Below are positions 56,988-61,817 of a stretch of 64,000 nt of DNA, piece after piece; position 1 is the first letter of the stretch, and each line of letters begins with the position of its first letter. The DNA lies in assembly GCA_963753395.1 (NCBI GenBank), contig CAVWBW010000004.1, positions 155,062-219,061 of the forward strand, written 5' to 3'. Under the pieces are notes generated by a model. It was not told the origin of the DNA, did no database searches, and saw only the letters and a list, made by a program, of their open reading frames with translations. This DNA comes from an uncultured delta proteobacterium. GTDB taxonomy: Bacteria; Myxococcota_A; Polyangia; Polyangiales; Houyiibacteriaceae. The position numbers were made by a program, and so were the translations under genes.

Positions 56988-59210
56988 GTGGGACACGTGC
57001 GCCTTGGACTATTTACGATTCTGGCGTGTGCAGCCTTCTGCGGCTGCGCGCCAAAACAGGATCCTTCTACCGCTCCGGTCGAGGGCGGTGGAAAGAGATC
57101 GAAACGCCTTCCGAACCCGGTGGCAGAGACCGCGCCCGAGGCCATGACGGACCCCGTCGCGTACTGGCGCGAGGGTGAATCGAGCGCACAGGTCGACGCC
57201 GCCAAGGCCGATCAGGAAGGGCACTTGCTCCTCGATTTGGGAGAGGAGTGGACCCCCTACATCCTCAGCGAGGCATCGTCTCTGGACGAGGAGCCGAAGC
57301 CCAACCAGTACCGGGAGACCTACCTCGCGTTGGCACGCGGCGAGTTCCCCGACGACCGGCACGGCTACCGCGCCGAGAAGGATCAGTATCTCGAGCTCTA
57401 CGGCATCCTGCCCACGCTGACGCTCCTCCGCCAACGCTTCGCGGAGGTGGAGGCGCTCGAGTGCGCTGACGCGCTCGACCTAGAGACGCTTCGAAGCTTC
57501 GACGGGTTCCTCGCGTACGAGAAAGGGTACCGTCCCACTCGTCGCGTGAACCGATACAAGCGCTTCAAGCCCCAGATGGCGGCCCTCGTTGCGCGCGCTC
57601 AGGTCGAAAGCCTCGATCAAATCACCCGCGAGCTCGTGGCCGACGACGAAGAGTGGGAGAGGGTCGAGGAGTATCGGAAGATCGCGCCCGAGTACGAGGC
57701 GATCGTGGCGGCACAGGCCCGACTCGAGTGCGAAGGCTTTTTCGAAGGCCGGGGCGCATACACGCCGGGCCTTTTCGATTGGCGCACGCACGAAGCGCTC
57801 GCGGAGTTCGAGCGCCGGCATCGCGTGTACGGCTGGGGCTTCCTCGGCAACGACACTTTGGAGGTGCTTCGGAAGACGCCCGCAGAGACCGAGCAGGAAG
57901 CCGTGATTCGCATGTTGACCGAACGCGCCATGCACGCCGCGGAGGTCATCGAAGACGGAAGCACGTCCACGAAGAACGACGGCGAGCCGCGTACCTACAC
58001 CGATGAGAGCGGGCAGCCGCGACAGATCCCGAACTTCGAGGCCGAGCTCCGCGAGCGGGTCATGGAGGCCTTCGGCTTGCAGACTCCAGAGTCCACCTAC
58101 GCATGGCTGCAGTCGTTGGGCGAGATCCCCGCGCACGAGACGGTCGCGCTCCGCGGCGTCGAGCTGCCACCGTACTACAGCGATTCGATGGATCTCCAGG
58201 TCGAGGTCGACCGGGGCGACGTCTGGTTCGAATTTCCTTATGACGAGGAAGGGCGAAAGCGCTCGCAGCCGGTGGCCCGGCGCCCCCGTCTGACGATCTT
58301 CGTCAACTACAACGATCAGAAGATTCCGCTCGCCCGCTTCGGCACCACGATTGGCGGTTGGCGCGGCGACTACATCGACGGCACCGTCATGCTCAAGTAC
58401 AAGGGCTCGCCGGTCGGAAAGCGCGTCTGGAGCCGCATCTCGGCCGCGCCGATTTGGGTGCCGCCCGAAAGCACGCCGCCTCGCGTGATGCTCTCGAAAC
58501 GCCGGAAGCGCGGCGTAGAGTACTACGAGATCGATTACCACACGACAGGCCCGAGTTACGCGTCGGCCTATGGGTTGGTCGCGGCGTACCACCGGAAGTA
58601 CTACCGAGGCCCTGACGGTGAGCTGCAGCTCGGCGGTGACGAGGGCATCCGAACGCATGGCTCGGTCGACTACATGAGCATCATGCGCCGCCACTCGCAT
58701 GGTTGTCATCGCATGCACAATCACATTGCGGTGCGCCTGATGTCGTTCGTGCTCGAGCACCGTCCGCACACGCGGTACGGCTCGCAACCGATGGAGTACC
58801 GTCGCGAGTTCGAATACGAGGAAGAACTCTACACGATGGAGTTCGAAAAGGGCGGTTACAACTTCGTGCTCGACGAACCGCTCCCGGTCGAAACCCTGGA
58901 AGGACGCGTGCGCGGCAAGGTCAAAGAGCCGATCGAAATCGCGCTTCCGAGGTACGATCGTGAGCTCGAGGCGTATGTCATGCCGACCGGGGAGTGGGTG
59001 ACAGTCGACCGCTACGGGACAATCACGCCGCGCGTGATGCCGTTTGACTTCGACGCGCCGCTCGAGGGGCCGGAGCTCTTGGCGCCCGAAGCGACGACAG
59101 CCGAAGCCACGTCCAGTATCACCGAATCGGGTATGCCGGCGACGGCCCCAGCGTCGATGCCGATGACGACGTCCGTAGTTCCCATGGCACCTGCTCCAAC
59201 CTCTCCCTGA
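56988..59210 (+). CDS. L,D-transpeptidase-like lipoprotein with peptidoglycan-binding-like segment
   Basis: IRTHGS...SHGCHRM YkuD-type catalytic motif; G.FD..T..AL..F.R. Confidence 0.8.
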   Translation: MGHVRLGLFTILACAAFCGCAPKQDPSTAPVEGGGKRSKRLPNPVAETAPEAMTDPVAYWREGESSAQVDAAKADQEGHLLLDLGEEWTPYILSEASSLDEEPKPNQYRETYLALARGEFPDDRHGYRAEKDQYLELYGILPTLTLLRQRFAEVEALECADALDLETLRSFDGFLAYEKGYRPTRRVNRYKRFKPQMAALVARAQVESLDQITRELVADDEEWERVEEYRKIAPEYEAIVAAQARLECEGFFEGRGAYTPGLFDWRTHEALAEFERRHRVYGWGFLGNDTLEVLRKTPAETEQEAVIRMLTERAMHAAEVIEDGSTSTKNDGEPRTYTDESGQPRQIPNFEAELRERVMEAFGLQTPESTYAWLQSLGEIPAHETVALRGVELPPYYSDSMDLQVEVDRGDVWFEFPYDEEGRKRSQPVARRPRLTIFVNYNDQKIPLARFGTTIGGWRGDYIDGTVMLKYKGSPVGKRVWSRISAAPIWVPPESTPPRVMLSKRRKRGVEYYEIDYHTTGPSYASAYGLVAAYHRKYYRGPDGELQLGGDEGIRTHGSVDYMSIMRRHSHGCHRMHNHIAVRLMSFVLEHRPHTRYGSQPMEYRREFEYEEELYTMEFEKGGYNFVLDEPLPVETLEGRVRGKVKEPIEIALPRYDRELEAYVMPTGEWVTVDRYGTITPRVMPFDFDAPLEGPELLAPEATTAEATSSITESGMPATAPASMPMTTSVVPMAPAPTSP

Positions 59211-59261
59211 AGAGCATCAGGAGGGAGCGCCACGCGGTCTCTACGGGGCTTTCTGTATCGC

Positions 59262-59320
59262 TGTGGATAGACCGGGGAAAACGCGCGGGGCTTGTGGAAA
59301 ATTAATCGTATTTCCCACAA
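59262..59320. promoter_or_regulatory. Three DnaA-box-like sites, two forming an 11-bp imperfect inverted repeat
   Basis: TGTGGATAG 59262-59270, TGTGGAAAA 59293-59301 (fits TTWTNCACA on minus), TTTCCCACA 59311-59319. Confidence 0.45.
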
Positions 59321-59392
59321 ACGAATTTCGTTGATCTAGTTTCGTGGATCGGTGACAAAAGGTGTCGGAAGATCGCGACAGCGAGCTCGGAC

Positions 59393-59403
59393 GTTCTTTG
59401 AAT
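59393..59403 (+). promoter_or_regulatory. boxA-like antitermination motif 1
   Basis: GTTCTTTGAAT resembles rrn boxA GYTCTTTRAMA. Confidence 0.55.
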
Positions 59404-60420
59404 CAACCCATTTGACTACGGCAACGAAAGTTGTCGTCTCTCACTCTCACGGGAGTTGGAAGCGGGGCCGCGAGGTCACGCAGTCGGGTTGGCGCGGGAG
59501 CGCGCCGAACGTGTCCGTGGGTCGTGAGGATTGCAAAAGCCGATGTGCTGATGCGTGGGTCCGAGTCGAGCGAAAGCTCCGGCGAGGGCCGTCGACGCGA
59601 GGGGCATCGGTGGAAGGCGCGCTCGAACTGGGACGCCGCTCTGTTTCACCACACGGCGGCCGCGAAGGTTCTCGGCGGAAATCAAAGAGCGACAGGCACT
59701 GGAGCTCTTGGTGCACCGCGACGGCGCGTCACAGGTTCGGTGCTCGGCCGCTTCGGCGGAGCGAGCGCCCGCCTGAGTGAGCGCGGCGCGGTGAAAGCGC
59801 TGGTTCACCGTCAGAAGCCGGTTCGGAGCCGGTGGCGGTAATCCCACGAGGTTCGGGTGCCCATCTTTGAAAACTAAAACTCTGGATTGCACGCGTCGGC
59901 CTGAACGTGCTGCGCGGCTCCATTGCACACGGTATCAATACCGGCAGTGGGGCGCGGGGCGGCATGAGACATCGGATCAACAAGAAGCGCATCCCAACTT
60001 CGCCCACGGCGAGCCGAAAGCCGCGGGTTCAGGTACGGCGAGAGTCGTCGCGGAGTCCAATCACGGCGGTTTGCTAAACCCAAACCGTTGCTGGGACTCT
60101 GTCCGAAGGAGGAGCGTAGGGCGACCTACGCAGCACCCTCGGTATCTCGAGACCTTCAAGTCGAGAGGTACGACGACAGCGCACGGGACGTGTCGGTCAA
60201 AGCTCTTCCAGTGAGTCCAATACCTCACGCGGAGGGTTAGCAGGCTTCCCGACGGGGAATGCATCGCGCCGAAACGTGTCGTGCAAAGCTAGCGTGGCTG
60301 AATAGGCCCGCCATCGAGCCTCGAGCTCGAAATCCAGACAAAGGCGGTCGGGGTGTGCGCACCGTATGTGCGCACACACAACCAAGCGACGAGCAATCGT
60401 CGCGAGGCCAGCGAACTTCC
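59404..60420 (+). ncRNA. Putative large structured non-coding RNA (two domains, about 59410-59860 and 59880-60420); family unrecognised, ends approximate
   Basis: No credible CDS in 1.25 kb; many tetraloop hairpins (GAAA 59426, GCGA 59470, GAAA 59572, cUUCGg 59752, GAGA 60040, GCGA 60121, GCAA 60393); long-range helices 59522-59534/59838-59849, 59881-59888/60331-60338, 59900-59906/60027-60033. Confidence 0.8.
59862..59875 (+). promoter_or_regulatory. boxA-like antitermination motif 2
   Basis: CATCTTTGAAAACT in an A-rich linker between the two structured domains; resembles the 16S-23S spacer boxA TCTTTGAAAAC. Confidence 0.6.
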
Positions 60421-60452
60421 AAAGGGGCGATCCGTGCCGGGTCGCCCCTTTT
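60421..60452 (+). terminator. Intrinsic, possibly bidirectional terminator
   Basis: AAAGGGGCGATCC-gtgcc-GGGTCGCCCCTTTT hairpin with T tail. Confidence 0.85.
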
Positions 60453-60508
60453 CTAATTGGGCGCGGAGATTGGGGTTTGATTTTCGGTACTTGCAGCGTT
60501 TGGGGCTG

Positions 60509-61585
60509 CTACCGGTTCTCGTTCGTTGACCTCACGTTGACATGAGGCGGCGAGGAGGGCTCGAGAGCCTGCACCAAGCGCAGCTGCGCGCGCTGCCCGA
60601 GGTGCGCGTATTGATGCGTGCTCTTGGCCGAAGTGTGCCCGAGCTGCGCTTGAATGGCTTTGATGGAATGCCCGCCCGTGGCGGCCTGGCTGGCCACCGA
60701 ATGGCGGCCGATATGGTGGTGGCCGATCTCCCGGAGCCCAAGAGCTCGTTGGACGAGTTCGGAGGGGCCTCGCGTGGGAGTAGATGCGGTTGGGGAAGGT
60801 ACCCGTCCTTGCTGAACAGGAACTCCGGCCCCGCGTACCCCTGCTGGATGTGCCAGCAAATGGCGTCGACCACGTCTTCGGTGAGAGCAAGGGTCAGCAC
60901 CTTGTTGTTCTTGCGCGGCCCGAGCACGGCGGGCCGGTCCTTGTGGCCCCGCTGCACCGCCCGATCGATGATGAGCTGCGGCGGGATATCCCGGATTCGA
61001 TCTCGCGCGATCGCGTAGACTTCGCCCGTACGAAGGCCGAGCCGGGTCGTGAGGTAGAAGAACGCGTACCATTGGGGGAACATGTCGAACATGCCCCGGA
61101 GCAGCCGGTCGCGCTCCTCTTCCGTGTACCAGTCGATGGCCGGTTCCGGGACGCTCTCCATCGGCACGTAGGGCACCGATTTCAGGTGCCCTCGTCTCCA
61201 CATGAACCGAAGCACCGCCCGCACGATCTTGAGGCGATTGTTGATGGACTCCGGTCCGAGGTGTGTTGGCAAGCCTGCCTTGAGCTCGTCGATCACCGAG
61301 GTGTCGACTTGCTCGATGTACAGATGCCCGATGTGCGACTCGAGGTCGCGCCAGAAGCGCGTGCAGTTGTCTCGGCTGCCCGGCTTCATCGTGGTGGCGG
61401 ACAGGTACATCCTGTACGCATTCGCCATGAGAAAGCGCTTTTGCCCGGAGATGAGCTCCTCCCGCTTTCGTCGTTCGGCTTCGCGCGCCTCGGCCATCGT
61501 TCGGAAGCCAGCTTTGCGCTGGCGCCCGTAGCCCTTCGAGCGTGAAGTCGTACTGCCATGATTTGCTTAGTCTTCTAATGGCCAT
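60509..61585 (-). pseudogene. Tyrosine recombinase/integrase with apparent frameshifts (about 61530 and about 60790)
   Basis: MAIRRLSKSWQYDFT arm-binding-like start, LGLRTGE, K (PRKNNK), HIGRHS, QLGH, HQY distributed over two frames. Confidence 0.85.
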
Positions 61586-61817
61586 GCGGCTCGTTTCCTT
61601 TCTGCGTGGAACTTCCGCATCGCCATGTCCGGATTCGTCAGGAAGAGGTCTAACATACCCCGACGGAATCGGCGCACGCGCGGCCGCCCGTACGACCGGA
61701 ATTCGCCTCCCGGAGACGAGGTTTTCGTAGACGTCGGTTGGACCAGCCGGCGTACGCCGCCGCATGGGCGTAGGTCTGCCAGGCGGCGACATGCGTGCTG
61801 TGAGTCGCATCGGTCAT
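61567..61817 (-). pseudogene. Excisionase-like HTH protein with two apparent +1 frameshifts
   Basis: Reconstructs to MTDATHSTHVAAWQTYAHAAAYAGWSNRRLRNLVSGRRIPVYGRPRVRRFRRGMLDLFLTNPD; overlaps integrase start. Confidence 0.65.

Follow-up and report, generated by a model that had tools for sequence, protein, structure and literature searches.

The window analysed here, a stretch of 64,000 nt from an uncultured delta proteobacterium of the order Polyangiales (contig CAVWBW010000004.1, positions 155,062–219,061), carries on its + strand an RNA of ca. 1,054 nt, extending from 5′ GGAAG to 3′ CUUCC (59367–60420), that with a probability of about 0.8 comes from a real gene for a trans-acting, structured RNA belonging to a new family in the Polyangiales. 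The RNA is conserved, single-copy, non-coding and folded, it occurs in RNA libraries, and it has upstream sites and a terminator of its own. Its fold consists of two closed multi-branch domains clamped by a helix that joins the 5′ and 3′ ends. The limits of the RNA were drawn from the block of homology (ca. 59260 to ca. 60458), from RNA-library contigs covering 59376–60427, from a 379-pair consensus structure and from the strand indicated by G-U pairs. A first-pass annotation, made from the letters of the sequence, had proposed a new or very divergent class of large non-coding RNA in myxobacteria, in agreement with the lack of a confident Rfam hit, the existence of homologs, their covariation and the coverage in RNA libraries. 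The tests that it named as able to refute a functional RNA were all run and none went against it; the structured-RNA interpretation is thus supported and extends to much of the order.

The gene lies in a gap of ca. 1.3 kb between the stop codon of an open reading frame (ORF) of 740 aa (59210) and the end of an integrase ORF (60509). This gap had been described as packed with + strand hairpins and lacking any plausible protein, and indeed none of its ORFs, which reach up to 150 aa, is conserved: the window copy has 15 ORFs of at least 30 aa, most of which are intact in 0–6 of 39 homologs and the best preserved one in 12. Similarly, 33 of 776 pairwise indel events relative to the window copy are multiples of three, with 676 being of 1 or 2 nt, so that no coding signal was found. 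We infer that the RNA acts neither as an mRNA nor as a cis-regulator.

A BLAST search identified the RNA in 50 of the 54 other species-level genomes of the genus, with 67–94 % identity (a few matches being fragments at contig ends), and in none of 33 genomes from 17 other genera of the family; nucleotide identity in the alignment is 59–93 %. With the larger versions from other families described below, the distribution is wider than the first-pass annotation had envisaged. The genome of origin contains one full copy, plus a 33-nt copy of the 3′ end 4 kb downstream. An invariant 25-nt motif gave 45 exact matches in the GTDB species set, all from uncultured metagenome-assembled genomes (MAGs) labelled as Myxococcales, Polyangiales, Sandaracinaceae or Deltaproteobacteria, and one as Coxiellaceae. 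The RNA on contig CAXMND010000100.1, from an "uncultured Coxiellaceae bacterium" MAG, is accompanied by Polyangiales-type flanking genes, which points to wrong binning of the contig or to mislabelling.

The consensus structure was obtained from 40 full-length homologs using RNAalifold with RIBOSUM scoring. It contains 379 pairs, 94.0 % of which are canonical, and 175 pairs show double changes; in slid controls, where the 3′ partners were moved by 1–3 columns, 36–41 % were canonical and 54–76 pairs showed double changes. With 44 sequences, RNAalifold predicted 296 pairs, and compensatory double changes were present in 123. The covariation is well above slid and shuffled controls. The ends of the RNA are joined by helix H01 (59367–59376 with 60411–60420, + strand), resembling a leader–trailer helix and covarying across families. 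Of the two multi-branched domains closed by long-range helices, already recognized in the first-pass annotation, domain 1 (59385–59860, +, helices H03–H20) is variable in size, and domain 2 (59861–60347, +, helices H21–H40), closed by pairing of CAUCUUUG...UCUGGAUU with AAUCCAGACAAAG, is the best conserved half. Compared with dinucleotide shuffles, folding gave z = −3.17 for domain 1 and z = −6.28 for domain 2; in both cases none of 100 shuffles equalled the real sequence. The sub-domain at 60171–60345 (+) was used to build covariance model R1 (43 sequences, 175 positions, 47 pairs). Two further hairpins, H41 (60353–60377, +) and H42 (60381–60408, +), follow domain 2.

Seven hairpins had been listed from the sequence, and six of them are present in the 40-homolog consensus, all on the + strand. 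Compensatory changes occur in 5 of 12 pairs of hairpin 59413–59425/59430–59443, in 6 of 7 at 59565–59571/59576–59583, in 10 of 15 at 59734–59751/59756–59773, in 6 of 7 at 60114–60120/60125–60131, in 7 of 9 of H41 (60353–60361/60369–60377) and in 6 of 11 of H42 (60381–60393/60396–60408). The place of the seventh, at 60035–60048, is taken in the RNAalifold consensus by a long-range helix; the local hairpin is kept, however, in aligned row L040, which reads ACGCC-TTCA-GGCGT at this site. Certain segments, such as CUCACUCUCAC and GUGUCCGUGGG, are paired differently in the two predictions and, being invariant, lie beyond resolution by covariation. The assignment to the + strand from G-U pairs was also correct: there were 1780 G-U cells on the + strand vs. 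631 on the − strand, the alifold energy was −798.9 (+) vs. −674.1 (−), and the canonical share fell to 83.9 % when the + structure was mirrored onto the − strand.

Several rows of the alignment (A1) depart locally from this architecture. An insertion of ca. 83 nt in domain 1 (after ca. 59490; columns ca. 290–380), itself resembling a hairpin-rich expansion segment, is present in six of the 44 rows (L019, L020, L021, L023, L041 and L042), and L039 has smaller insertions elsewhere. Row L037 (genome G075) shows a 16-nt tandem duplication (GGCGAGTCGAAAACCAA-like) in a hairpin of domain 2 (columns ca. 963–978) and a gap of ca. 38 nt in the 60300–60340 region, possibly an assembly error.

Parts of the stretch occur in 19 listed public runs from nine studies, 12 of the runs being recorded as RNA. 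Contigs from four RNA libraries (four studies; sediment or marine) cover 59376–60427, which speaks for transcription, a point raised in the first-pass annotation; among the 32 pieces listed out of 3,218 there are starts at 59376, 59377 and 59381 and ends at 60415, 60416 and 60427. Word depth in the bins of the RNA was ca. 2.9e4–6e5 in runs X1, X3 and X13 and 1.3–32 in X10; the flanking bins were mostly uncovered in X3, X10 and X13, and those covered in X1 had a word depth of 0.4–9.8. These depths are summed over all contigs, cannot rank genes and are no measure of expression, nor does missing cover prove anything; because of this, we use only the presence of 59376–60427 in RNA libraries. The drop in cover after ca. 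60427 is no more than a hint of 3′ trimming. Since the RNA libraries containing it are small, the RNA is likely to be highly abundant. Contig joints were seen in single contigs, none was repeated between runs, and they were disregarded.

Two TGTGGA sites precede the gene on the + strand. The distal one (59262–59267) is at least 90 % conserved in 44 homologs, and repeated sites also precede the homologs from other families. The proximal site, with an A-tract (59293–59319), is conserved in the alignment, takes in the genus the form of a palindrome, TGTGGAAAA..TTTCCCACA, and in every family lies ca. 75 nt upstream of the point where the RNA begins; it is probably a regulator or UP-like element. 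Only two copies of the palindrome TGTGGA-N(12–22)-TYCCACA exist in the 4.9-Mb genome, the other at C2:300570, and no regulon can be deduced. A putative sigma-70-type promoter follows at 59331–59359 (+), with a −35 box TTGATC (59331–59336), a 17-nt spacer and a −10 box GACAAA (59354–59359). Its conservation, together with the clearer boxes found at the same position in other families (TTGTTGC ... CATAAC/TATAGA), points to a promoter immediately before 59367.

The start of the predicted transcript, GGAAGAUCGCGACAGCGAG, includes a leader hairpin, UCGC-GACA-GCGA (59373–59384), followed by a boxA-like motif, GUUCUUUGAAUCAAC (59393–59407; the whole feature at 59373–59407, +), whose TCTTTG is invariant in 44 of 44 rows. 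A second, invariant boxA-like motif, CAUCUUUGAAAACUAAAAC, is located centrally (59862–59880, +) and, by pairing with 60331–60347, also provides the 5′ side of the helix that closes domain 2. It is identical to the 23S-spacer boxA of the same genome at 17 of 21 positions and reads TYTTTGAMA in other families. The rRNA leaders of this genome carry GCUCUUUGACAAU, CAUCUUUGACAACUGAAUAAG and GGUCUUUGAAAACUGAAUC, and their comparison with GUUCUUUGAAUCAAC (at +27) and CAUCUUUGAAAACUAAAAC reveals a likeness of motif, suggesting that Nus factors might be loaded as on rRNA operons (PMC5725501, PMC4807359 and PMC10250234). In this genome, the 16S (C12:168246–169791) and 23S (C12:249–3256) genes are unlinked, ca. 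165 kb apart; the region 3′ of the 16S gene holds an ORF resembling, by eye, a cold-shock gene, and the 23S gene has its own promoter and leader, two boxA elements and two tRNA-like stretches taken by eye as Ile and Ala.

The intrinsic terminator that had been claimed at the end of the unit can be read from the sequence as a hairpin, GGGGCGAUCCG-UGC-CGGGUCGCCCC, with a U tract (60421–60456, +), and the hairpin is helix H43 of the structure; as described below, this part of the claim did not find an echo in the consensus scanner. The stem is alike in other families, e.g. GGCGATCCGGGTGACCGGGTCGCC. The conservation between families of the stem GGCGAUCCGGG..CCGGGUCGCC was noted in L106, L141–L145, L151, L173, L179, L180 and L185, among others. 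This conservation goes far beyond the needs of a plain intrinsic terminator, and the stem may thus have a second role, as a processing or protein site or as an integrase target.

Larger homologs of 1.7–2.75 kb, recognized by shared landmarks, occur in seven or more other families of the order, with the same promoter, closing helix, central motif and terminator; the window copy is the smallest member of a family ranging from 1.05 to about 2.75 kb. Families and genera are designated here by handles (f17, g34). In a sample of the order, model R1 detected the RNA in all 17 genomes of the genus and in 4 of the 23 from family f17, but neither in 6 genomes from other genera of the family of origin nor in the remaining 104; the corresponding figures for a phylum-wide sample were 6 of 6, 2 of 11, 0 of 2 and 0 of 131. 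The matches in f17 span the whole model, being full-length in 12 of 19 loci, and keep GGUCAAGGCUCCUCCAG, CGCGGGGGGU, CAAAGCUGG and CCAGGCCAAG. When the R1 sub-domain was aligned across the two families, both partners had changed in 34 of the 47 pairs, vs. 17.9 ± 2.2 in shuffles (0 of 500 reaching the observed value) and 9–14 in slid controls. A MAFFT alignment across families misaligned the 3′ half and was left out of the results.

The order of landmarks in f17 is, from 5′ to 3′, the TGTGGA/A-tract sites, the RNA 5′ end (YGGAAGUUCGCGGCACAUCUGCC), the central motif (UYUUUGAMA..GGAUUGCA), the R1 sub-domain, CUUCC and the terminator, whose stem is nearly identical to that of the window copy. The central motif is found ca. 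1,070–1,180 nt downstream of the 5′ end, domain 1 being enlarged, and the end-to-end length in seven loci is 1,780–1,892 nt. Genus g34, from the same family as the window, has a 2.3-kb version 3′ of the ortholog of the 740-aa gene, situated about 1.5–1.8 kb further downstream of it.

A pattern combining the promoter sites with the RNA 5′ end was present in 63 of 251 genomes of the order (f1, 32/64; f17, 15/64; f10, 4/9; f22, 6/32; f13, 2/2; f5, 1/1; f23, 1/1; f16, 1/31; 16 other families, 0/46), and a reversed-pattern control gave none. Nine of the 64 listed matches lack the A-tract and −35/−10 features and look like chance. Among 11 loci that were followed, eight possess the 3′ partner of the 5′ end and the conserved terminator; regular expressions did not find the 3′ end in the loci from f13 G036, f22 G203 and f22 G148. 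The resulting lengths are 2,206 and 2,093 nt in f10, 2,211 nt in g58 of f17, 2,302 nt in g34, ca. 1,735 nt in f5, ca. 1,825 nt in f23, ca. 1,784 nt in f13 and ca. 2,751 nt in g30. The end helix covaries between families, as GGAAG/CUUCC, CGAAGG/CCUUCG, CGAAGU/ACUUCG and UGAAGU/ACUUCA. All counts for the wider family come from strict patterns and are lower bounds, so a missed locus need not mean absence.

None of the RNA families tested accounts for the gene. None of the 4,227 models of Rfam 15 reached its gathering score in the whole 64-kb window, in line with the first-pass annotation, which had seen no signature of rRNA, tRNA, tmRNA, RNase P or group II introns. A permissive scan of 59100–60650 (E ≤ 10) had as top hits Twister-P5 (19.0 bits vs. 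37.6) and group-II-D1D4-6 (16.9 bits vs. 49); these and the hits to mir-2518, sobemo_FSE, the PA5194 thermometer, a trypanosomatid snoRNA and isrG were all far under the gathering scores and were rejected as chance. Four homolog loci from f17 had no Rfam match at E ≤ 0.1. The models of OLE (RF01071) and ROOL (RF03087), run singly on the whole genome, gave no match at E ≤ 1; the control genomes contain neither OLE nor ROOL, so these two tests depend on the models themselves. For GOLLD and HEARO, presumably both represented in Rfam, coverage was confined to the all-family scans.

Other candidates were also discarded. The group II intron is disfavored by the D1D4-6 score and by the RNA being single-copy and devoid of a conserved ORF; the best D1D4-1 score in the genome (19.3 bits vs. 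35) was on another contig. The genome's own RNase P RNA (RNaseP_bact_a, 296.9 bits) lies on contig C8 and its tmRNA (RF00023, 178.8 bits) on contig C7, with no RNase P RNA in the window, in which ARAGORN found no tRNA, tmRNA or tRNA-like element. An rRNA, or a piece split off from one, was dismissed because complete 16S (1–1533/1533) and 23S (1–2925/2925) genes lie on contig C12 and the window had no match. As to 6S RNA (RF00013), the RNA is about six times longer and multi-branched, unlike the textbook rod of ca. 185 nt with a central bubble; the sole 6S candidate of the genome (C2:146103–146293) is sub-threshold (41.1 bits vs. 46.4). A literature search covering sources other than subscription journals found no paper on this RNA within the material it returned.

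A number of observations weigh against a structured RNA gene of this extent and distribution. Four of the 54 genomes of the genus (90–100 % complete) had no BLAST match. The structures were predicted from the same family on which they are scored, and the prediction was therefore repeated with held-out sequences: from a structure predicted with 33 homologs and scored in the seven most divergent, 252 of 340 doubly changed cells were paired (74 %) and 88 broken, vs. 61–96 paired and 109–132 broken (36–45 % paired) in slid controls. The two-family R1 alignment was in turn fitted to the R1 model, this model does not detect the homologs of genus g34, and whole-length homology of the long forms is shown by colinear landmarks only. 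The consensus scanner called neither a sigma-70 promoter nor the hairpin at 60421–60451 as a terminator. The 5′ boxA-like site reads GUUCGUAGAG in f17 and is not kept in other families, making the role of this motif uncertain, and the central one is a helix strand in the consensus; the recruitment of Nus factors is for both reasons only a hypothesis. The contigs from RNA libraries are assemblies that cannot give strand, exact ends or level, their depth being summed over relatives. Finally, comparison of neighboring genes across families revealed no shared protein gene as a candidate partner.

Within the structured-RNA reading, we propose that a sigma-70-type promoter, preceded by the TGTGGA/A-tract sites, would drive transcription from about 59367 onwards. 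The leader hairpin and the boxA-like motifs would then recruit a Nus antitermination complex of the rRNA type, protecting the long untranslated transcript against Rho and favoring the pairing of its distant 5′ and 3′ ends; the odds are against this step, which we put forward tentatively since homologs from other families do not keep the 5′ motif. Trimming of the terminator hairpin back to the closing helix would come later, a step whose chances we place somewhat short of even. The mature RNA would be a folded particle, either a ribonucleoprotein scaffold or an RNA-only assembly like OLE, ROOL and GOLLD. Among the functional readings, the scaffold has nearly an even chance.

A large ribozyme, with its invariant internal loops and junctions forming an active site for self-processing or for another substrate, seems unlikely. 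It would explain the long invariant single-stranded and junction segments amid covarying helices, and its size and GNRA-rich architecture resemble those of RNase P or group I/II ribozymes; nevertheless, the scores of Twister-P5 and group-II-D1D4-6 are representative of a general lack of matches to catalytic Rfam families, a normal RNase P RNA is encoded elsewhere in the genome, no processing products or joints are repeated between runs, and the gene context suggests no substrate. We consider it quite unlikely that the RNA is an abundant decoy or sponge, comparable to 6S RNA for RNA polymerase, that titrates Nus factors through the boxA-like motifs or ribosomes through GGAGG/CCUCC. A sponge needs no covarying architecture of 1–2.7 kb, and the loss of the 5′ boxA-like motif in other families and the pairing of the central one do not fit this role, although both motifs closely resemble the boxA of this genome's rRNA, many small RNA libraries contain the RNA and the sole 6S candidate of the genome is sub-threshold.

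That there is no independent RNA gene is very improbable. The constant position of the RNA within the genus, always 3′ of the 740-aa gene and on the same strand, would agree with a processed, stable 3′ untranslated region of that gene, but conserved promoter-like sites separate both, the f17 homologs are not beside the 740-aa gene and those of g34 are displaced downstream of its ortholog as described above. A hidden small protein gene, for which the ORFs in the gap might be taken, is contradicted by the predominance of 1–2 nt indels and by the lack of a conserved ORF. An origin as remnant or cargo of a mobile element, whether from a group II intron or as a piece of the neighboring integrase island, is scarcely credible: against the contiguity of the integrase and a weak group II D1–D4 hit (E = 0.034) stand the single full copy per genome, the constant position with or without an integrase, which is missing in 31 of 44 loci, a repeat that leaves the RNA outside the island, group II models far under their cut-offs, and the absence of matches in 72,556 plasmid and 50,697 phage records.

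Turning to the neighborhood of the structured RNA gene, it serves as an integrase attachment (att) site, like tRNA and tmRNA genes, as deduced from a 33-bp repeat, downstream integrases and stray copies of its 3′ end. The attL core (60430–60462, +) is repeated exactly and directly 4,065 bp downstream, at window-equivalent 64495–64527. The repeat, ATCCGUGCC...GGGC, corresponds to the second half of the terminator stem plus the U tract, the att core being regenerated on integration, and brackets an island of ca. 4 kb that begins with the integrase. The tyrosine-recombinase gene (60509–61810, −; Pfam Phage_integrase, 26.3 bits vs. a cut-off of 27.1) is a neighbor lying outside the RNA; relatives with 42–95 % identity follow the RNA in 13 of the 44 loci, and stray copies of the last ca. 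30 nt are found in many genomes of the genus. Being so constant, the RNA would offer integrases a safe target at its 3′ end. The island also holds a 163-aa ORF without Pfam match and a DUF695 protein, and just beyond attR there are ORFs with DUF4336, nucleotidyltransferase and weak UPF0150-like matches. Many MAG contigs of the genus (e.g. L003, L006, L032 and L036) end at or just past the RNA 3′ end, as fits variable islands and repeated att copies, which would disrupt assembly there.

Upstream, the 740-aa gene is the direct neighbor of the RNA in 42 of 44 loci; in the two exceptions the upstream flank is missing. The 740-aa protein (60–85 % identity among these genomes of the genus) is a weak YkuD match in Pfam (22 bits vs. 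a cut-off of 23.4), and the genes upstream of the RNA within the genus code for this weak YkuD-like protein, a CitMHS transporter and a Ser/Thr kinase. In f17 the neighbors are an MscS channel gene upstream (one genome) and a convergent FadL/TodX gene downstream (five genomes).

To our knowledge, few bacterial RNAs longer than 500 nt are known outside rRNA, examples being OLE, GOLLD, ROOL, RNase P RNA and group I/II introns. These large RNAs have each opened new biology, RNA-only cages being the latest case (PMC12286853). The new family is longer than the large RNAs just named, it is order-wide in ecologically important and mostly uncultured myxobacteria, and it appears to use rRNA-like biogenesis signals. 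Its size series, from 1.05 to 2.75 kb, is a natural deletion map of a conserved core, and the 1,054-nt form lends itself to cryo-EM and chemical probing. An entry in RNA family libraries would annotate metatranscriptome reads and "empty" intergenic regions of Polyangiales, and the 3′ end of the RNA can serve as the marker of a genomic-island hot spot. It is possible, if on the doubtful side, that this giant RNA, of housekeeping grade in the Polyangiales and made in the style of rRNA, represents a new functional class at 1.05–2.75 kb, be it an RNA-only nano-assembly, a ribozyme or the core of a novel ribonucleoprotein machine; among the conserved non-ribosomal RNAs described from bacteria it would then be the largest, with a streamlined sediment genus holding a minimal version.

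Several known systems share some of these traits. As in rRNA operons (PMC10250234, PMC5725501 and PMC4807359), a leader hairpin comes before a boxA-like motif, another such motif sits between two domains, as between 16S and 23S, and a long-range helix joins the ends; unlike them, the RNA is not an rRNA and matches no rRNA model, and its 5′ motif is not conserved in other families. It shares with the att sites in tRNA and tmRNA genes an att core that overlaps the gene of a conserved stable RNA at its 3′ end, and the involvement of different integrases across genomes, whereas it has no tRNA-like element and its att core is in a terminator hairpin and U tract. OLE RNA functions within a ribonucleoprotein and sits in an operon with its partner gene. 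Like OLE (RF01071), the RNA is a large, single-copy, ornate and probably abundant bacterial RNA of restricted lineage, with many covarying helices and without an obvious catalytic or coding role; it differs in sequence and structure, which do not match, in its host (OLE being from extremophilic Firmicutes), in being from 1.7 to more than four times longer, and in having no linked protein genes. ROOL and GOLLD are described in PMC12286853 as large ornate RNAs forming RNA-only homo-oligomers, evidence that molecules of this kind may work as particles that assemble themselves, one of the readings proposed above. In contrast to them, the RNA is chromosomal, syntenic and not phage-associated, and is not matched by the ROOL model; it nonetheless belongs to the same size class and, as far as its sequence-predicted fold can tell, shares their ornate, multi-domain folding.

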